DNA of 64,000 nt from Candidatus Woesearchaeota archaeon (lineage in GTDB: Archaea; Nanobdellota; Nanobdellia; Woesearchaeales; DSVV01). The position numbers and the translations under genes were made by a program. Below the pieces are notes generated by a model that was not told the DNA's origin, did no database searches, and worked only from the letters and a program-made list of their open reading frames with translations. Positions 8,491-49,318 of this stretch are shown piece by piece. The number at the start of each line of letters is the position of its first letter. The stretch's first letter is position 1. The DNA lies in the NCBI GenBank assembly GCA_016219865.1, contig JACRKF010000021.1, positions 2,224 to 66,223 on the forward strand, in the 5' to 3' direction.

Positions 8491-9309
8491 ATGAATTTTA
8501 AAGCCATAAAATTCGACAAAGATATCATTATTGATAATTATATAAAAACAAAAAGTTTAAATATCAACTATTTATATTATAGACTTATGCAAGCAATAAC
8601 ATTCCTCAAAAACGTAGAACATCTTCACAAACCTGTTTTTTCATTGCAAGATGCAGCAAAAATGATTGAGAAAAAAAAAGGATATGCACGTCTTTATCTT
8701 TATCGTTTGAAAAGAAAAGAATATATCAAAGAAATTGAAAAAGGGAAGTATAGTATTTCAGATGACATCTATGAAATTGCCTCAAATGTTGTATTTCCTT
8801 CATATATCTCATTCTTGAGCGCATTTTCTCTATATGGTTTAACAACACAAATACCAAAGAGGATACAAATTATTGCAGCAAAACCAAAAAAAGAATTAAT
8901 AGTTGATGATTCAACTATTGAATTTATTACATTTAAGAATAAGAATATTTTTGGATATGAAAGAACAAAGATTGGAGTTCATTATGGCATGATTGCAGAA
9001 AAAGAAAAAGCAATAATTGATGCATTATACTTACCGCAACATTGCCCAATCAGTGAAACATTTGAAGTGCTTAAGAATAAAGAATTTGACATCGACAAAT
9101 TAGTTGATTATGCTCTGCAGATGGATTCAATAATATTATTAAAAAGACTTGGTTATCTTTTAGAATTAGTAGAATTTAACATTTTTGAAAAAGTAAAACA
9201 TAAGTTAAATCAACGTTATGATCTTTTGAATCCATTTCTCCCTGCTTCAAATAAAGAATGTATAAAATCTATGAAATGGAAACTAATTATAAATGAGGTG
9301 CTTGAATGA
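8491..9309 (+). CDS. AbiEi-like antitoxin / transcriptional regulator (type IV TA)
   Basis: wHTH-like N-terminus. 4-bp overlap with the AbiEii gene. Confidence 0.5.
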   Translation: MNFKAIKFDKDIIIDNYIKTKSLNINYLYYRLMQAITFLKNVEHLHKPVFSLQDAAKMIEKKKGYARLYLYRLKRKEYIKEIEKGKYSISDDIYEIASNVVFPSYISFLSAFSLYGLTTQIPKRIQIIAAKPKKELIVDDSTIEFITFKNKNIFGYERTKIGVHYGMIAEKEKAIIDALYLPQHCPISETFEVLKNKEFDIDKLVDYALQMDSIILLKRLGYLLELVEFNIFEKVKHKLNQRYDLLNPFLPASNKECIKSMKWKLIINEVLE

Positions 9310-10058
9310 TACTGCGAAATCAATTAGGAAAATATGCGCAGATGCTTAACTATGATCTTGGACAGACAGAAAAAGATTATCTGCAGCATTTGTTTTTATT
9401 TTTTCTATCACAACATGATACAACAAACCTTGTGTTCAAAGGCGGAACAGCATTGCAGAAAGTATATGGTTTGAATAGATTTAGCATTGACCTTGATTTT
9501 ACTGCTAAAGAAAATAACATTGACTTCAAGATGTTAATAGAGAAAATTGCAAAGAAAATAACAGATTTTGGTTATAACTGCAAAGTGCAAGAGATAAAGA
9601 CAATTGGAAAAACATTTGTGATAAAAATACAAGGCCCTCTTTATCAAAACAGTCAAGTAAGCACTTGCACATTGCGTATTGAAGTTAGCTTTCGTGAATC
9701 ACTTTTGCTTCAACCAATCCTAAAAGAGATCATTCCATCATACACTGATTTACAACCCTATACTATCCTTGTCATGCAAACAGAAGAGATATTAGCAGAA
9801 AAAGTGCGTGCAATTATGACACGAAACAAACCAAGAGATATATTTGATCTTCATTTCTTGCTGCTGAAAAACACAGCTTTCAATATTGAGTTTATCAACA
9901 AGAAACTAGATTATTATAAGGAAAAATACAATAAAAAAGCATTTTTACAAAAGATAAAAGAAAAAGAGAAAATATGGAATCATGAAATGAAGCAGTATAT
10001 TAGAAATCTACCTTCATTTGAATCTATTGAAAAAGAGATCATAAAAAGAGTCTCTTAG
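9306..10058 (+). CDS. AbiEii/AbiGii-family nucleotidyltransferase toxin
   Basis: The LVFKGGTALQKVYGLNRFSIDLDF motif is typical of DUF1814 (AbiEii). Confidence 0.8.
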   Translation: MILRNQLGKYAQMLNYDLGQTEKDYLQHLFLFFLSQHDTTNLVFKGGTALQKVYGLNRFSIDLDFTAKENNIDFKMLIEKIAKKITDFGYNCKVQEIKTIGKTFVIKIQGPLYQNSQVSTCTLRIEVSFRESLLLQPILKEIIPSYTDLQPYTILVMQTEEILAEKVRAIMTRNKPRDIFDLHFLLLKNTAFNIEFINKKLDYYKEKYNKKAFLQKIKEKEKIWNHEMKQYIRNLPSFESIEKEIIKRVS

Positions 10059-25577: not shown

Positions 25578-27515
25578 CTAGCGTATCCTGCTTTTAGCAG
25601 CCTGAAACACATGCTCAGGGAGAACACTTTGAACTGAGATGATACCATAATGCAGACCAATTGCTTCTGCTGGCGCTTCTTGCTTTGTATAACTAAATCC
25701 ATTGCCATTAGAACTCAAAGGAAATAAAGAAACTTGTACTGATGAATTTACCCCTAAGTCTCTAAGATTAGGAAAATGTGTTGGAAGAATTGCGCGAACA
25801 CCTTTATTGAGAAAAGTGTTTTCTGCAATTGCATATAAGATTGCTGCGCCGTCATCTGCTCTTGTTGCAGTTCCCTATTCATCTAATACCACAAGACAAT
25901 ACGATTCACAACCTGTAATCTGCTCATACAGCTCTTTGATTGCTTGTTTTTCAGCAGCAAAACTGCTTTTAATATTTGTTCCTACTTGCCTATGCCTTAC
26001 AAATATTCTTTCATGGATTGAGATTGTAGCAGAACTTGCTGGGACATATAATCCAGCCTGCGCAAAATTCACAAGTATTGCAGCCATATCAGCATAGATT
26101 GACTTTCCTGCTTCATTTGGACCTTCAACTATCTCAACAAGAGTATCGTGATTAAGATAGACGCTATTTGGCATTGGTTTGGAAACATGAAGGAAAGGAT
26201 TTAGGCCATTTTCAATATTGATTATCCTTTCTTCTTTTGGAACAATTGTAGACCTTACCCTTTTTTTTTCTTTAAAAAATTTTGCTAATCCTGCATACAA
26301 AGCAATCTCTTTTTCAATTTTTTTAAAAGAAGTTGTAATATATCTAAATTTCTCGAGGGAATTACGTTCCCCAAATAGATGATATAACTCTTTAGCATCT
26401 TTTGGATCTGCTGCTATAATCTCTTGCAACTTCTTTTTTAATGAAGAAATTCCTTTCTCTTCATTCTTCATTATATGATCCACAGCTCTCTGTATACGAC
26501 CAAGTTGCGGAACATCAGCATCAGTAAGATCTGGAAATGAGATGCTTTCCAGATTTTGAACAACATTTTTTACATTTTTCATAAATTGTTCATAACAAAA
26601 TTGAGCAACATCTTTAGCTTCTTCTGGATCAAAGAGATAGGTTCCACCATCTCTTGATTGGATATTACCCATCCTATGACCATGTTTAGAATGTTTATTC
26701 ATAAATCCTATCCCTGCTTTTCCTTTATAGCACTGAAATAGATCCATGACAGACCAAAGAAGAGCTTTCATAGTAGAATCGAGAGAGATGCAATCATTTT
26801 TTGTCAAAGATTTTAAAAGATCGTCATTAACCATAAAATAATTGATTGCGTCAGTTCGTTGAGCAATAAGATTTCTGTCAGTCAATGGATTAAGCACCCA
26901 ATCAGCAAGTTGAGGTTTGTCTAGATCATATCCTGAAAATAATGCATTAAGCAATCGTGGAGTTGGTTTTTCCATAGTAAAGAAATAACCAAATGTCTTT
27001 TCTGTATCACCACCATAAAGCGCATTATAACTTTCATGATCAAGAACTGCACTATGTAAAAAACTAAGCGAATCATCTTTAGGTAAACTCCCTTTTACTA
27101 ATTGAGGATGCTTTGTATATGATAGATCAATCTCATCAACAAGAACAACAATATTGCCATATTTAACAGAATCCATATTAATTTTAGGCGCAATCACTAT
27201 ATCTGCAGATTCAAGACGAGCTTTGTATCTTTTTGGATCAAGAGAAAACTTTTCAAGAGGAATACTGGACATCCTCATTTTTGTTTGAACAAGAGCCTTG
27301 TAAAGAGAAAGTGCTTCCTTTATATGAACAGGGATATGATCATCACGACGTGAATCATACTTTCCATAATTAAGAGAATCGAGATCATGTTTCCCATTAA
27401 CTTTTGAAGCAATAGTCCCTACAAAAACTGCGCTTAGATTATGATGCAATTCACTCCTTAACTCAAGAATTTTAGCTCCAGTTTCTAATGTTTGTATTTC
27501 CTCTTCAAGCGTCAT
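25578..27515 (-). pseudogene. MutS-family ATPase (domain V) interrupted by an in-frame TAG at 25875-25877; read-through would give about 645 aa
   Basis: Walker A GPNEAGKS. The sequence reads ...SYCLVVLDE-[TAG]-GTATRADDGAAILYAIAE...THF, which matches MutS LLDE-I-GRGTSTyDG...TH. No MutS domain I (GDFYELF) is present. Confidence 0.7.
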
Positions 27516-27552
27516 AAAACAAAGTATTGTAAGAAGCTTTTTAAATTTGATT

Positions 27553-28191
27553 ATGAACCAAAAACAAATGCTCCAATTACTCCAGCTTTTTACAAAAGGA
27601 TATGATAATAACTTTTCTTATCTTATCTATGATGAACAATCAAGAGAAGCTGCTGTCATCGACCCATGCGGAGAAATACAGTTGATTGAAAAAGAGATAG
27701 AAAAAAACAAGCTGCAGCTTAAATACATCATCAATACTCATTCTCATTTTGATCATATTGAGAAAAATAAAGAGATAAAAGCAAAATACAACTGTATAAT
27801 ATTGATGCATGAGCATGAGAAATATCCAGCAGACAAGAAACTGAAACACAACGAAATAATCTTTCTTAGTAAATCAAAGATAACAGTTCTCAACACATCA
27901 GGACACACACAAGGAAGCATCTGCTTATTTTTCGAGAATCAAGAACATAAATACTTGATTACAGGCGATACCTTATTTGTCAACACAATCGGCAGGATGG
28001 ATTTTGAAGGAGGAAACAAATCATTAATGTATGATTCTTTGTACAACATAATTCTTCAATTAGATGAAAACACAATCATTCTTCCAGGGCATGATTATGG
28101 ATTGATGCCAATGGATACTTTGAAAAAACAAAAAGAAAACAATCCATTTCTTAAATGCAAAAATAAAAAAGAATTTGTTGGAAGGTTTTGA
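27553..28191 (+). CDS. MBL-fold metallo-hydrolase (glyoxalase II-like)
   Basis: HSHFDHI, GHTQGS and HDYG motifs. The ORF-track start is TTG; ATG at 27553. Confidence 0.75.
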   Translation: MNQKQMLQLLQLFTKGYDNNFSYLIYDEQSREAAVIDPCGEIQLIEKEIEKNKLQLKYIINTHSHFDHIEKNKEIKAKYNCIILMHEHEKYPADKKLKHNEIIFLSKSKITVLNTSGHTQGSICLFFENQEHKYLITGDTLFVNTIGRMDFEGGNKSLMYDSLYNIILQLDENTIILPGHDYGLMPMDTLKKQKENNPFLKCKNKKEFVGRF

Positions 28192-28447: not shown

Positions 28448-29137
28448 TTATTTCTTCGCAACATACACAGCCATATTATTAAACTGCCAAACTAAATTAA
28501 TTTCTTTAAATCCAACAGTTTTAAGAAGCTTGAACTGTTCACTTAATCTCATAGGTTTATCATCAATAAATGCATGTTTTAGCCAAACTTGCAGTTCATT
28601 GCCTGAAAGATTATTTTCAAGATAATTTTTATAAATTTGTTTATATTCTTCATTTATCTGTTGATCTTCTGCTTCAATAAAATCACCATTCACAAAAACT
28701 CCATTATTTTTTAACCCAGTATATATTTTCTCAAATATCAACTTTTTCTGCTCATGTGATGAATTGTGGATTGCCACAGCAGAAACAATAACATCAAATT
28801 GTTTGTCAAAAACCATTGTATTGAAATCATCTTTTCGTAGATCAATTCTATCAATATATGCCATTAAGTTTTTCCGAGCATTTTGTATCATTTTATGAGA
28901 AAAATCAACTCCAGTTATTTTTGCTAATGGAAATTTCTTGAATAGTAAAAGCATTCCATGTGCTGTACCAGAACCAAGATCTAATATATCCAGATTACTA
29001 TGAGAATGATACTGCAAAGAATCAACAATTACTTCATGCAATTCATCATTCTTCATTACAACACAATCTGCAATAATATCATAATCATCAATCGTTTTTG
29101 AAAAATGGATATTGATTGGATTGTTTTGGTCTTCCAT
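28448..29137 (-). CDS. class I SAM-dependent methyltransferase
   Basis: Motif I ILDLGSGTAHG. Confidence 0.75.
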   Translation of the reverse strand: MEDQNNPINIHFSKTIDDYDIIADCVVMKNDELHEVIVDSLQYHSHSNLDILDLGSGTAHGMLLLFKKFPLAKITGVDFSHKMIQNARKNLMAYIDRIDLRKDDFNTMVFDKQFDVIVSAVAIHNSSHEQKKLIFEKIYTGLKNNGVFVNGDFIEAEDQQINEEYKQIYKNYLENNLSGNELQVWLKHAFIDDKPMRLSEQFKLLKTVGFKEINLVWQFNNMAVYVAKK

Positions 29138-29262: not shown

Positions 29263-30960
29263 TTACTCTTTCCTCTTAAACTTCTTCTCAAGTTCATACA
29301 ATGAATAATGTATTATTGCTGGACGTCCATGCGGGCAAGTGAATTTATTTTCGCATTGAAACAATTCTTCCAGAATTCTATAGATCTCTGGAAATTCTAA
29401 TACATCATGCGCTTTTACTGCGCTTCTGCAAGCTGCTCGTGCTATTCTCTCCTCCTTAATTTCCTCAATTTTCACCGTTTCGCCAAGATTTAATTCATCA
29501 ATAACATCATAGATTAATTGTTTCTGTTGTGTTCTTCCAAAAACAGAAGGTAATGAGCGAAGCAGATAACTATCATTACCAAATAACTCAAGATTAAACC
29601 CAGTGCTTTGCAGCAATTCAATATTCTGCTCTATAATAACGCGTTCATTTGGTGTTACATGCAACACAATTGGTGTTAATAATTGCTGCGCATGTATATG
29701 CTTATCTTTGCATTCTTGCAAGAATTTCTCATACATAACTCTTTCATGCGCTGCATGCTGATCAATCAGAAGCATTCCTTTTTCATCTTCTGCAATGATA
29801 AATGTATTATGTATCTTTCCAATTAATCGTATATTCAACACTTGTTTTAAAGGTAATAAAGACGGCGCTTGCGTGAATGCAGTTTGATATTCAATAAACT
29901 GCCCTGCTGAGGACAATATAAGTTTTGCATCAATCTCTTTTGGTCTTGATTCAATCACTTCCGGAATCAAATTTTCTTCAACTAAGCAATCGATAACTGC
30001 TTTCTTTATTGCTTCATAGATTAAATATTCTTTATCAACTCTGACAATTGATTTTGAAGGATGCACATTAACATCAACTTTCTGCGGCAGAATAGTTATA
30101 TTTAAAATAAAGATCGGATGCCTTCCATGAAACAAGAAAGTGCCATAACCATCATAAACAGCTTTGTTAAGAACATAATTTTTAATATACCTTTTATTAA
30201 TGTACAAGCTTTGATATTCTTTATCTGTCCTTGCTGCATTTGGCTTGCCGATATAACCATTAATCTCAACATCGCCATTTGCAAAGTTAACAGCCAGAAA
30301 CTCTTTTGTTAAATCTCTGCCATATATTGTTATAATATTATTCAGCAGATCTGTTGTAGACGGTGAATTAATAATTGTCTTCCCATTATGCGTCAACAGA
30401 AAATGCATCTCTGGATGGATTAATGCATAACGAGTAATGATATCAATAATATGATTAAATTCCACTGCAATTCCTTTCAGATGTTTTTTTCGCGCAGGAA
30501 CATTGTAAAAAAGATCAGAAACAGCAATCATTGTGCCTTGTTTTGCGCTGACATATTCCTGCTTTAAAACAATGCCATTTTCAACTGTTATTGAAACACC
30601 AACATCATTTTCTTTTGTTTTTGTTATCATTTCAAGCTTAGCAATTGAAGCAATACTTGCTAATGCTTCTCCTCGAAATCCAAGAGTTGTAATCTGAAAC
30701 AAATCCTGAAGATTATTTAATTTTGATGTAGTATGGCGCTGTATACTCATCACAACATCATCTTTCTCAATACCTGATCCATTGTCACTCACTTTAACAA
30801 GAGATTTCCCGCCTTCAATAACTTCAATGGAAATATGTGTTGCTTCTGCATCAATTGCATTCTCAACCAATTCTTTTACAACAGAAGCAGGTCTTTCAAT
30901 AACTTCTCCAGCTGCAATCTTATTTATTAAATCTTTATCAAGTTCTTTTATTTTACTCAT
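29263..30960 (-). CDS. mutL: DNA mismatch repair protein MutL (with endonuclease motif)
   Basis: GHKL motifs ELVENAIDA, DNGSGI and GFRGEAL are present. The C-terminal DQHAAHERVMYEKF is the DQHAxxExxxxE nicking motif. Confidence 0.9.
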   Translation of the reverse strand: MSKIKELDKDLINKIAAGEVIERPASVVKELVENAIDAEATHISIEVIEGGKSLVKVSDNGSGIEKDDVVMSIQRHTTSKLNNLQDLFQITTLGFRGEALASIASIAKLEMITKTKENDVGVSITVENGIVLKQEYVSAKQGTMIAVSDLFYNVPARKKHLKGIAVEFNHIIDIITRYALIHPEMHFLLTHNGKTIINSPSTTDLLNNIITIYGRDLTKEFLAVNFANGDVEINGYIGKPNAARTDKEYQSLYINKRYIKNYVLNKAVYDGYGTFLFHGRHPIFILNITILPQKVDVNVHPSKSIVRVDKEYLIYEAIKKAVIDCLVEENLIPEVIESRPKEIDAKLILSSAGQFIEYQTAFTQAPSLLPLKQVLNIRLIGKIHNTFIIAEDEKGMLLIDQHAAHERVMYEKFLQECKDKHIHAQQLLTPIVLHVTPNERVIIEQNIELLQSTGFNLELFGNDSYLLRSLPSVFGRTQQKQLIYDVIDELNLGETVKIEEIKEERIARAACRSAVKAHDVLEFPEIYRILEELFQCENKFTCPHGRPAIIHYSLYELEKKFKRKE

Positions 30961-32414: not shown

Positions 32415-33509
32415 TTAATGATTATTATTTTTAACACGTTCAAATTCCTTTAGATAATGCTTTGCAATCTCAGCATCATGAATAATAATTATATTTTCAT
32501 CATTATTTTCATCGCCATTTTTTGTGGGATTATAACTGCCTGTAATTACAACACTTTCATCTACAATGAAAACTTTATGATGCAGTTTGTATTTATTATT
32601 ATCAAAAATAACTGAGATATTTGCATCTTTTAATTTCTGATACTCAGTAAACTGGTTATTTTGTGATTTATCAAAAACACCTTCAATAACAATGCCTTGC
32701 TTTGATTTCTGAAGTAATAAATTCCCAATATTATCAGACGTAAAAGAAAAGACCATAAAATAAATGCTTTCATTTGCTTTTTCAAGAGTTTCAATAACTT
32801 TTTGTTCACATTTATCCTCAGGACAGAAATGATTATCAATTTCAATTAATGTGATATTTAATATTGTATTTAAGAAGTTACTTTGATTAAGCATAATGCG
32901 AGGATACTTCACTTTTTCTCCTTTCCCAAACTCCCCATTCCATAATTCTCTAAATTCATCATTATAATTCTCAGCAATCTTCAAAGAGTTTATAACAACT
33001 AGATTATTGTCATTTTTATAAATATCATTATCAGTTGGATTCATGCTTCCAGTAAATACTCTCAAATTATCAAACACGCAGAACTTATTATGCATCAACT
33101 GATTGCCATCATCAAACTTAAATACATTGCCTTGAAGGTTTTCTTTATTATCATTATCAACTACAACTCTTACAAAAACATTCTGTTGCGCTTTCTGCTG
33201 CAAAGCTTGCAGAATATCTTGATTGTCAAGATCGTACAATGCGCAGCTAATCGACGCATTTGCTGAGTTTATTAGCTCAACAACTTTCTCAAGACAATTT
33301 TGTGTTTGACAGAAATAAACATCAATTGAACCATTATCAAAGACAGGAATTATTTGTTTTTGTGCTTCTTTTATAGAATCCTCAGTTATTGCATCAGTGC
33401 TTCCATCGTGTATAAATATTGTTTTAAAAAGTGTGATTATTGCTGCTGTTAGAAATATCAAAACGATAAATATAATAAAAAAACGCAGCCAGAATGATGC
33501 CGTCTTCAT
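32415..33509 (-). CDS. phospholipase D-family protein with two HKD motifs and an N-terminal TM helix
   Basis: The two HKD motifs are HNKFCVFD...GSMN and HHKVFIVD...GSYN. A transmembrane helix spans residues about 8-28. Confidence 0.75.
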
Positions 33510-33901
33510 TTTTTAAACTTCCTGATTAGCAAGTGCAAATCCAGAATTATCTGCTTTGCTTCACTTTCACTTGCTTTTTTGCCGTAATAATTGATTCCAT
33601 TTCTTATCTTACGCAATTTGTCAAACAAATCAGCTTCATAAGATAAATGAAGAACTTCCTTTAGAAATGATGTATAACATTCATGATTGTAAATTTTATA
33701 GCCTTTTTCCAATGCAAGAGCTTCTAAACTTTCTCTTAATGCATCATACAAGAGAGTAATCTTTCCAATATAATATTTATCAGCTAATGCTTCAGCCGAT
33801 TGTATCTTCATCTCAGCAATTTCCCTTGTTGAAAGTATTAGATTTTTATCTTCTTTAACATCTTTGACTATTCTTTTATTAATACATTCTTTCCAATCCA
33901 T
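33506..33901 (-). CDS. HEPN-domain protein (partner of the upstream MNT)
   Basis: R-x4-N/H-type HEPN motif (LRKIRNGINYYG). The ORF-track start at 33916 is GTG; ATG at 33901. Confidence 0.6.
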   Translation of the reverse strand: MDWKECINKRIVKDVKEDKNLILSTREIAEMKIQSAEALADKYYIGKITLLYDALRESLEALALEKGYKIYNHECYTSFLKEVLHLSYEADLFDKLRKIRNGINYYGKKASESEAKQIILDLHLLIRKFKK

Positions 33902-33902
33902 T

Positions 33903-34415
33903 TTACCAACTTCCACTTAAAGTATATCCATTAAGTATATTATGGAGAAGTTCTTTGTTTGTTACATTCTCCATCCTATGAAATTGCATTACTTGTATTT
34001 CTCTTTTTAGAATTTTTTCATATTTTTTTAGATCTAGTTTCTTATCAGTTGGTGTAAAAACAGCAATATCTATATCTGAATCTGATCTTGCCTCTGCTTT
34101 TGATAACGAACCAAAAAGTATAATGACTGGATTTAGCAGTTCATTTTCGAAATAATCAAGCATTCCTGATTTTTCAAGAATAGATCTCCAATAGAGCCTT
34201 GATAAATCAATAAAGAACTGAGAGTCTTTATTTGCATAATAATATATATACAATTTATCTACTTCCTTTTTTAAGATTTTCTCGATAAAGAAAGTATCAA
34301 GAAGTTTAGATGCTGTTGGTGGACTTATCTTTTGCATTCTTGCATATTCTCTGACATTGATTCTCCTATAATTATCTTCCATAAACGATTTCAATCTGTT
34401 AATTATTTCTAACAT
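33903..34415 (-). CDS. minimal nucleotidyltransferase (MNT) with an N-terminal wHTH
   Basis: GSLSKAEARSDSDIDIAVF matches the GS-x9-DxD nucleotidyltransferase motif. Confidence 0.75.
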   Translation of the reverse strand: MLEIINRLKSFMEDNYRRINVREYARMQKISPPTASKLLDTFFIEKILKKEVDKLYIYYYANKDSQFFIDLSRLYWRSILEKSGMLDYFENELLNPVIILFGSLSKAEARSDSDIDIAVFTPTDKKLDLKKYEKILKREIQVMQFHRMENVTNKELLHNILNGYTLSGSW

Positions 34416-36537: not shown

Positions 36538-37176
36538 ATGATAACCAAAAAAAGAAAGGTTTATATAGTTCCAACCCATAACTATAGTTATATGGAGAAT
36601 CCGCATAGTTTCAAAACAATACAGTTGTTATATAATGAAACCGCAGAAAAAAGAATATTAAGAAGACTTTTTCTTGATCCTAATAAAGAGTTTAGTTTAT
36701 CTGATCTTGCAACGCAGTCTTCTATGCGAAAAGAAAACATTGGAAAGATTTTAAAACATTTTGAAAAGAATGATTTGATCACAATAGCAAGACTGAAAAC
36801 AATTTGGCAGATACGTGCAAACCAGCAAAATAGCTTATTTATAAGAATGAAGATAGTCCATAATTTGCAGAACATTTACAATTCAGGTTTAGTTGACTTT
36901 CTGAATGAATATTACAACAATCCAAAAGCAATTGTCCTCTTTGGAAGTTATAGGAAAGGTGAAGATATTTCAACATCAGACATTGATATTGCAGTCGAGG
37001 ATGATTCAATTAAAGAATATAAGATACTTGAATTAAAAGAACTGAAAGAAATAGAAAAACATCTGCAAAGAAAAATACAGGTTCATTTATTCAATAGAGC
37101 AGATATAAACAAGAATGTATTCAGCAATATTGCCAATGGCATTGTGTTATTTGGTTTTTTAGAGGTTAATCTATGA
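36538..37176 (+). CDS. nucleotidyltransferase (MNT) with an N-terminal wHTH
   Basis: LFGSYRKGEDISTSDIDIAV. 4-bp overlap with the next gene. Confidence 0.7.
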   Translation: MITKKRKVYIVPTHNYSYMENPHSFKTIQLLYNETAEKRILRRLFLDPNKEFSLSDLATQSSMRKENIGKILKHFEKNDLITIARLKTIWQIRANQQNSLFIRMKIVHNLQNIYNSGLVDFLNEYYNNPKAIVLFGSYRKGEDISTSDIDIAVEDDSIKEYKILELKELKEIEKHLQRKIQVHLFNRADINKNVFSNIANGIVLFGFLEVNL

Positions 37177-47468: not shown

Positions 47469-47792
47469 TCACTGTTTAATCTGCTTAATATGCGTATTAA
47501 CAAAATACTCCAAACAATCAATCTCGCAAAATGAGCCTTTTCTCCTAAAATCATCAGGACCAAACATCAAAGTAAATGTTGATTCTTTTCCTTTCAGATC
47601 ATTGCCGCATACAGCGCAAAACTGTCTTTTTTGATTTTCAATTGTTTTAATTCTATCATCAATCATTTTCTGAAGAACTAATGCGCCATTTTTAAGATCA
47701 TGCTGCACTTTATACAAATCTTCATCTTCAATGCAAGTAATTGCCTCATTTATCTTCAACTTCATAAAATCCACCTCTTTTTTTAATTGCAA
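47469..47792 (-). CDS. hypothetical Zn-ribbon protein
   Basis: CAVCGN...CEIDC. 107 aa. Confidence 0.4.
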   Translation of the reverse strand: MQLKKEVDFMKLKINEAITCIEDEDLYKVQHDLKNGALVLQKMIDDRIKTIENQKRQFCAVCGNDLKGKESTFTLMFGPDDFRRKGSFCEIDCLEYFVNTHIKQIKQ

Positions 47793-47798
47793 AATCAG

Positions 47799-49070
47799 CT
47801 AGATTTCAATAATCTCTCCTAACTTTGGAACTATTGCTTTAACACTTTTAGGAACTGTTTTTGCTAATGCTAAACATGATTCTTTATCTCCATGATTGCA
47901 AATAACTTTCTTTGGTTTTAAAGCAGTAATTATCTGAATAAGCTCTTTTTTTCCAGCATGCGCAGAGAAATCAAATTGTTCTATTGAGCATTTCACTGCT
48001 AATCCAATGCCGTCAATAAATGCTTTTTGCTGGTCTAATAATAGTCTGCCATTGCAACCTTCCGCTTGAAACCCAGTCAATAATATTGCTGTCTTTGGAT
48101 CATTGTATAGAAATTTAATATAATCTAACACAGGACCACCTGCAACCATTCCAGATGTTGTAATAAAAATACCTTGTTCTTTTGTAATATCAATACGATG
48201 TTGATAACTTTTTACATACTGCACTATTTTCAATGCTTTGCGCAGTGCAACGCTATTATTTATTGAATCAGGATCTGAAAGAAGTGTATCAGTTACTTTT
48301 CTAGCCATACCATCTAAATATATTGGCACCATGAAATTCTGCTTAGATAAAAATATCACTAATTCTTGCGCGCGCGCAACAGAAAATGTTGGAATAATCA
48401 CTTTTCCACCTTTCTTAATTGTATCTTTTATTATTTGTAAAAATCTAGCTTCAGTTTCTGCTCTATTTTTGTGATCTCTGTCGCCATATGTTGATTCGCA
48501 AATCATAACATCAATCTTTTGTTTTAATTGCTGATGAAAATGCAAGCCATTTGTTAAACGTGTAGTTAATGTATTGATATCTCCTGTATAAAGAATTGTT
48601 TTGCCGTCAATTTCTAAAAGTATTGAACTGCTTCCAGGAATGTGACCGGCATCAAGAAATGTGCAAGAAAGATCTCCTTGCTTAAATTGTTTATTATAAT
48701 CAACAATTGTCATAAGACTCATTATTTTAGTAATATTTTCTTCAGTATATGCAGGATCTTTCACAGACAACATTTCAATATGAATAGAATCATTCAATAA
48801 TATCTTTGTTATTTTCTTTGTTGTTTTTGTGCAATAAATGCTGCAGTTTAATCCATTATGATTTAACAAAGGCAATGCGCCTGTATGATCAAGATGCGCA
48901 TGACTTAAAAATACAGCTTGAATCTGACGAGGATCAATTAGATTAATAAGCGGATATTCCTGTCCATTCTGACTAATTTTAATTCCAGCATCCAGAAGAT
49001 ACTTATCATTAACTAGAATACACGACCTGCCAACTTCTTCAGCGCTGCCTAAAAATTGAATTGTCACCAT
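47799..49070 (-). CDS. MBL-fold beta-CASP ribonuclease (aCPSF2 / RNase J-like)
   Basis: HAHLDHTGALP MBL motif. The beta-CASP region is present. About 420 aa with no KH domains. Confidence 0.8.
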   Translation of the reverse strand: MVTIQFLGSAEEVGRSCILVNDKYLLDAGIKISQNGQEYPLINLIDPRQIQAVFLSHAHLDHTGALPLLNHNGLNCSIYCTKTTKKITKILLNDSIHIEMLSVKDPAYTEENITKIMSLMTIVDYNKQFKQGDLSCTFLDAGHIPGSSSILLEIDGKTILYTGDINTLTTRLTNGLHFHQQLKQKIDVMICESTYGDRDHKNRAETEARFLQIIKDTIKKGGKVIIPTFSVARAQELVIFLSKQNFMVPIYLDGMARKVTDTLLSDPDSINNSVALRKALKIVQYVKSYQHRIDITKEQGIFITTSGMVAGGPVLDYIKFLYNDPKTAILLTGFQAEGCNGRLLLDQQKAFIDGIGLAVKCSIEQFDFSAHAGKKELIQIITALKPKKVICNHGDKESCLALAKTVPKSVKAIVPKLGEIIEI

Positions 49071-49318
49071 CTTTTTTACCTTAAAATAATTTACTTATTT
49101 TAAAATAATTCACTGCGTAAATTATTTTATCATCATGAACTACGAATTGCATACAAAGATGCCAATTGTATATTAATTGCGGGAAAGTATACGATATACG
49201 CTTTCATATAATAAGATATTATTGTAAGTACTGATTTATAATGGTTTTGAATTTTTTATAGTTATTGGGACAATAATTTTGATTTTTGATTATCAAGAAG
49301 TAATAATTTATCATTATT

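Follow-up and report, generated by a model that had tools for sequence, protein, structure and literature searches.

Decoding of TAG as an amino acid is known from pyrrolysine incorporation in methanogens and some Asgard archaea, and from phages and bacteria in which this codon has been reassigned. In ABC ATPases, the H-loop histidine is needed for hydrolysis, and in MutS the C-terminal helices of domain V hold the dimer together. Both of these elements lie downstream of an in-frame TAG in a MutS-like gene from Candidatus Woesearchaeota, which we analysed within a single stretch of 64,000 nucleotides (64 kb, hereafter the window). Judged from the sequence and its relatives, the stop is probably an ordinary one-base Trp-to-stop nonsense allele, and a very young one.

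Upon translation, the minus-strand frame 27515..25578 was found to hold 645 codons from the ATG at 27515, with a single internal stop at codon 547. In reading order the gene gives ...VEGPNEAGKS...SSFAAEK...CLVVLDE-TAG-GTATRADDGAAILYAIAEN...LPTHF...AAKSRIR-TAG, and its features are as follows.

25578..27515, minus strand: the whole MutS-like gene read without the internal stop, 645 codons plus a terminal TAG
25878..27515, minus strand: upstream part, 546 codons, ending at Walker B and equal to the deposited MBI5392681.1
26100..26123, minus strand: Walker A (P-loop) GPNEAGKS, residues 465-472, whose G, N, G and K do not vary across the family alignment
25947..25967, minus strand: SSFAAEK, residues 517-523, occupying the place of the MutS/ABC signature S-x-F-x-x-E and aligning with 'STFMVE' of the MutS in PDB 5x9w
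25878..25895, minus strand: Walker B LVVLDE, residues 541-546, the final sense codons ahead of the stop, with D and E invariant in the family
25875-25877, minus strand: the internal stop, codon 547, TAG (CTA on the plus strand)
25876: the diagnostic base, T on the plus strand where C is expected for a Trp codon
25581..25874, minus strand: downstream part, 98 codons, in frame and intact, encoding the remaining ATPase domain, PTHF and the C-terminal helices
25773-25784, minus strand: H-loop PTHF, residues 578-581, which is 3' of the TAG and so absent from the deposited 546-residue product
25578-25580, minus strand: the gene's final stop, likewise TAG, beyond which the frame has only 8 unrelated codons before a TGA

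The original prediction had recognised a MutS-type ATPase interrupted directly after its conserved DE, and its coordinates, motifs, register and count of 98 downstream codons were all borne out by the translation and by alignment to the Pfam model of MutS domain V. The match to this model (MutS_V, PF00488; residues 462-642, profile positions 2-182 of 188) scores 82.1 bits against a gathering cut-off of 30.2 bits and spans the stop in one continuous stretch; because it runs unbroken, the register with the canonical DE[ILV]GRGT motif is correct. The open tail beyond the TAG is not a chance event. Given the base composition, 98 stop-free codons have a chance of about 4e-4, stop-to-stop runs of this length make up only 1% of all those in the window, and the tail is also homologous to the closest relative of the gene (P0002, described below).

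The upstream 546-residue ORF (P0001) is 100% identical to NCBI MBI5392681.1, which is deposited as 'hypothetical protein HZA96_02320' of Candidatus Woesearchaeota archaeon. In Pfam, the gene matches MutS_V and, weakly, MutS_III, and the precomputed Pfam list for P0001 and P0002 likewise comprises only PF05192 and PF00488. There was no match to MutS domain I (PF01624) at E <= 0.1, and neither the connector domain II (PF05188) nor the clamp domain IV (PF05190) was detected by Pfam, although the structure model of P0002 has a predicted alpha/beta N-terminal domain that is possibly connector-like. With NCBIfam, P0002 scores 95 bits against TIGR01070 (cut-off 642) and 114 bits against NF003810 (cut-off 480), the two MutS1 models, and with domains I, II and IV undetected and TIGR01070 so far below its cut-off, we rejected assignment to MutS1. 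MutS2 was rejected as well (66.9 bits against a cut-off of 400 for TIGR01069, and no Pfam match to an Smr domain), as was KamC (76 against a cut-off of 300). The earlier view of the gene as a MutS-like paralogue and not a canonical MutS1 is therefore upheld.

Membership in the MutS superfamily itself is clear from domain V, from the Walker A, Walker B and TH motifs, and from the fold, which was judged on an AlphaFold model of the intact relative P0002 (pLDDT 78, pTM 0.74). The top Foldseek matches of this model in the PDB are all MutS or MSH chains, with E-values from 1e-17 to 1e-15 and TM-scores of about 0.42-0.46 over approximately 650 alignment columns, and sequence matches in the PDB to residues 378-634 of P0002 reach E-values down to 2.5e-18. 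After the Trp at the site of interest, the model predicts a helix (residues 539-557), a strand (560-566) that leads to the TH motif, and C-terminal helices (613-634).

We looked for relatives by word-index search in 5.8 billion proteins and by running HMMER exhaustively against 1.84 billion cluster representatives. By word-index search, the sole close homologue is P0002, a full-length, uninterrupted protein of 635 residues with 54% identity that was seen on five contigs (L001-L005) from JGI, ENA and Logan assemblies. The HMMER search added P0048 (677 residues, 36% identity) and P0049 (694 residues, 34%), both also uninterrupted. In the family alignment, Trp occupies the stop column in all three of these closest relatives, whose motifs are DEWGTATR, DEWFTSTR and DEWITSTR in the order P0002, P0048, P0049. 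P0002 reads VVLDEWGTATR across the site, and its codons there are GAA TGG GGG on L001-L005 versus GAA TAG GGA in the window. Trp has no codon other than TGG, which becomes TAG through one G>A transition; since the closest relative has TGG exactly where the window has TAG, this one change suffices to account for the stop. The original prediction had held that the TAG replaces one conserved hydrophobic residue of the DE-[I/L]-GRGT motif. Its register stands, and the residue is corrected to the Trp of the closest relatives, not Ile or Leu.

The clade to which this gene belongs (motif DEW-x-T-x-TR) is very small and undescribed, having just 4 members at >=34% identity among the 1.84 billion representatives. 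Beyond P0048 and P0049, the HMMER search reached a distant clade extended at the N-terminus, followed by ordinary MutS; the corresponding motif is DE[TA][FYW]TSTN in the more distant clade and DE[ILV]GRGTS in canonical MutS. The proteins with long N-terminal extensions and the DE[TA][FYW]TSTN motif are P0053 and P0056-P0060. Four very large relatives (P0051, P0052, P0054 and P0055), 1369 to 2803 residues long, carry this MutS-like ATPase domain in mid-protein, for example at residues 1272-1560 of 2803. Neither protein search, including that of the 1.84 billion representatives, returned a relative truncated or split at this place, and a second word-index search with the family alignment yielded no further family members and no truncated relatives.

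How long the stop has been in place can be gauged from the 98 codons behind it. Identity to P0002 is 62.2% downstream of the TAG (98 positions) and 55.6% upstream (529 aligned positions), and GC3 is equal on both sides. The tail thus shows neither decay nor relaxation, which means that the stop is either very recent or not real. Synonymous sites are saturated at 54% protein identity, and half of the residues that are identical between the window gene and P0002 use different codons. Start-codon scans found no ATG in the tail; the first possible start is a TTG 53 codons past the TAG, beyond the H-loop, so the tail cannot be translated by itself.

We then considered how TAG is used elsewhere in the window, where the stops of 69 non-overlapping long ORFs are TAA in 40 cases, TGA in 16 and TAG in 13. 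Since the 13 ORFs ending in TAG include both pieces of the MutS-like gene, 11 others remain, and past their TAGs the frame continues for 0-31 unrelated codons, bar one case that is a separate gene with its own start. Four of the 11 match Pfam models through, or nearly to, the model end just before the TAG:

P-type ATPase ending in TAG: Cation_ATPase_C, model positions 1-174 of 175
LMW phosphatase ending in TAG: LMWPc, model positions 1-143 of 144
AbiEii gene ending in TAG: AbiEii, model positions 10-227 of 238
beta-CASP protein ending in TAG: RMMBL, model positions 2-52 of 63

In the beta-CASP/MBL RNase-like gene (47469-49094, minus strand), the TAG at 47799-47801 is followed in frame by a 109-codon ORF with a weak DUF7576 match. 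This DUF7576-like ORF is a separate gene and not a second case of an in-frame TAG, because an ATG of its own lies 12 codons past the stop. Across the whole 64 kb, we screened every in-frame stop lying between two runs of at least 60 codons, and the TAG of the MutS-like gene is the only one that falls in a real gene without a start codon close after it. The in-frame TAG count by which the original prediction had proposed to check for recoding, run here within the 64-kb window, accordingly gave no second in-frame TAG in a real gene. A search for tRNA genes, among them one with the anticodon CUA, found none in the window, and there is no match there to an Rfam family at its gathering threshold. 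With a folding energy of -19.1 kcal/mol (z = -0.75 versus shuffles), the 100 nucleotides surrounding the TAG do not form a readthrough-stimulating RNA structure. Our literature searches gave no account of recoded TAG codons in DPANN archaea and nothing relevant on MutS in Woesearchaeota. TAG is a normal terminator in this organism; genome-wide reassignment of the codon is rejected on the evidence of the 64-kb window, that is, the 11 other TAG-ended long ORFs, the four near-complete Pfam models among them, and the lack of another in-frame TAG. A recoded stop is not supported, and nothing points to site-specific recoding.

Among the explanations for the stop, we regard a young nonsense allele as the probable one, counting as real a polymorphism that the assembler happened to pick. 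By this account, a G>A transition (C>T on the plus strand, base 25876) would have turned the conserved Trp codon TGG into TAG, a direction of change that fits the AT-rich genome (GC content in the window is 32%, and composition does not change abruptly near the MutS-like gene). The stop would then sit directly after Walker B of a MutS-like ABC ATPase in a metagenome-assembled genome of Woesearchaeota, a DPANN archaeon. As TAG works as an ordinary terminator, the gene as assembled would give a 546-residue product without the last third of the ATPase domain (the D-loop region and the H-loop His of PTHF) and without the C-terminal helices, and with these lost the truncated allele is most likely a null. 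If the TAG instead arose as an error of sequencing, assembly or consensus calling, or if the assembler took up a variant from a minority strain, the true gene would carry TGG and be intact. This is possible but rather unlikely in our estimation. In its favour, the codon is one base away from the Trp codon of the family, the downstream part is without decay (62% versus 56% identity upstream), and the sequence derives from one metagenome-assembled contig of which no independent copy was found. The truncated protein P0001 forms a single-member cluster known from one contig of 71 kb, and the contig index lists no entry for it. In search of a second copy of the population, JGI metagenome contigs were scanned and gave only the P0002 locus, a scan of GTDB genomes gave only bacterial MutS1 among the matches listed (one search pattern was common to MutS1), and the protein with Trp in place of the stop had no exact match among 15 billion sequences. 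On the other hand, the TAG is the sole in-frame interruption in 64 kb, which shows that the assembly is not generally error-prone, and in prokaryotic genomes real nonsense alleles of young age are commoner than substitution errors in the consensus of a short-read assembly. It is on these two grounds, the lone disruption in 64 kb and the relative frequency of the two kinds of event, that we infer an allele real in the population in preference to a consensus error.

Two further explanations would make the interrupted gene a working one. Were the TAG decoded (by reassignment of the codon, as pyrrolysine, by a suppressor tRNA or by read-through specific to this site), translation would yield all 645 residues, and an intact, conserved downstream frame that has no start of its own, and is useful only if the stop is read through, is what such decoding would call for. 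We nonetheless consider decoding very improbable: TAG ends 11 other long ORFs as well as the gene itself, no other in-frame TAG lies in a real gene of the window, and the relatives carry Trp, which is not pyrrolysine, and none of them a stop. Trp is not a usual near-cognate product of UAG read-through, either, and the window offers no tRNA or Rfam match and no unusual RNA structure, just as no DPANN report of TAG recoding was found. It is equally doubtful, to a high degree, that a tRNA with its gene outside the window, whether near-cognate or suppressor, allows read-through of this one UAG; the cell would in that event still produce the MutS-like protein at full length, perhaps in small and regulated amounts. 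Slimmer still are the chances that the gene is naturally split or stably truncated, and that its 546-residue product functions as such, alone or together with a separate C-terminal piece. The truncated ORF does retain Walker A, the signature-like motif and Walker B. Against this stand the start at TTG, 53 codons on and past the H-loop with no ATG anywhere in the tail, by which a separately translated tail is rejected; the lack of any split or truncated relative among the 1.8 billion representatives; and the undecayed state of a tail that a long-standing truncation should have let decay. The original prediction had left three options side by side. Two of them, a recent nonsense mutation and a variant or sequencing error, are supported by TGG in the relatives and the undecayed tail, and the third, a recoded stop, is opposed by the use of TAG to terminate other genes, by the absence of another in-frame TAG and by the absence of a relative with a stop.

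The surroundings of the gene fit an archaeon, the neighbouring ORFs including Nop10, ribosomal protein S27e and aIF2-alpha as judged from their translations. No canonical MutS was seen among the window ORFs examined. A genuine MutL, encoded on the same strand, lies 1.7 kb upstream of the MutS-like gene and is separated from it by two others:

29263-30960, minus strand: bacterial-type MutL endonuclease (TIGR00585 547 bits against a cut-off of 180; MutL_C; motif DQHAAHE)
28448-29137, minus strand: SAM methyltransferase, between MutL and the MutS-like gene
27547-28191, plus strand: MBL-fold hydrolase, between MutL and the MutS-like gene

The nearness of this MutL on the same strand hints that the MutS-like protein could be its partner, a proximity known from this locus alone, as the contigs of the relatives are short (about 2 kb for P0048 and P0049) and give no gene context. 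The MutL start lies 30 nucleotides past the end of a bacterial-type sigma-70 gene in this archaeal contig (30991-32379, minus strand; Sigma70_r2 and r1_2, RpoD-like). The sigma-70 gene stops approximately 35 residues short of where the RpoD models end (RpoD_Cterm 2-203 of 238) and thereby lacks the recognition helix of region 4.2. Sigma-70 genes have been reported to be prevalent in Woesearchaeota (PMC8204110). Several other ORFs are likely of toxin-antitoxin or defence type: by eye, a nucleotidyltransferase-like ORF (33903-34415, minus strand) that overlaps a small helical ORF (33506-33916, minus strand) and a second nucleotidyltransferase-like ORF (36538-37176, plus strand), and by Pfam (120 bits) an AbiEii-family gene (9306-10058, plus strand).

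As it stands, the finding is a minor one, a single young nonsense allele or base-call error in one gene of one metagenome-assembled genome. For annotation, MBI5392681.1 (546 residues) is the truncated front of a MutS-like gene of 645 codons, and its locus is better marked as disrupted than taken for a shorter family member. Should the allele prove real and fixed, it would illustrate on a small scale how a reduced DPANN genome continues to lose a repair-related gene. For the flexibility of the genetic code in archaea the locus would matter only if decoding of the UAG were demonstrated, and the evidence here speaks against that.

Compared with described systems, the gene resembles the MutS1/MSH ATPases (E. 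coli MutS, 1e3m and 7oto; Neisseria MutS, 5x9w; human MSH2-MSH3) in its ABC-type domain V with Walker A, an S-x-F-x-x-E-like motif, the DE of Walker B, and TH. It differs from them in length (645 residues versus about 850), in the lack of a Pfam-detectable domain I with its mismatch-binding Phe-x-Glu, domain II or domain IV clamp, and in altered motifs, with GPNEAGKS in place of GPNMGGKS and DEWGTATR in place of DE[ILV]GRGTS. With TAG recoding systems it shares an in-frame TAG followed by a conserved downstream frame, and nothing else: TAG is a regular terminator here, the occurrence is single, the relatives have Trp, and no suppressor tRNA or pyl gene was seen in the window. Pyrrolysine decoding in particular differs in that the relatives of this gene have Trp (TGG) at the site and not TAG. 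Although it is a divergent MutS paralogue with a candidate repair role at most, seen in a single metagenome assembly, and a mutator effect would be only a guess, the locus resembles the null (mutator) alleles of mismatch repair and young prokaryotic pseudogenes in having one nonsense change in an otherwise intact, conserved gene of a repair family, with no further decay.
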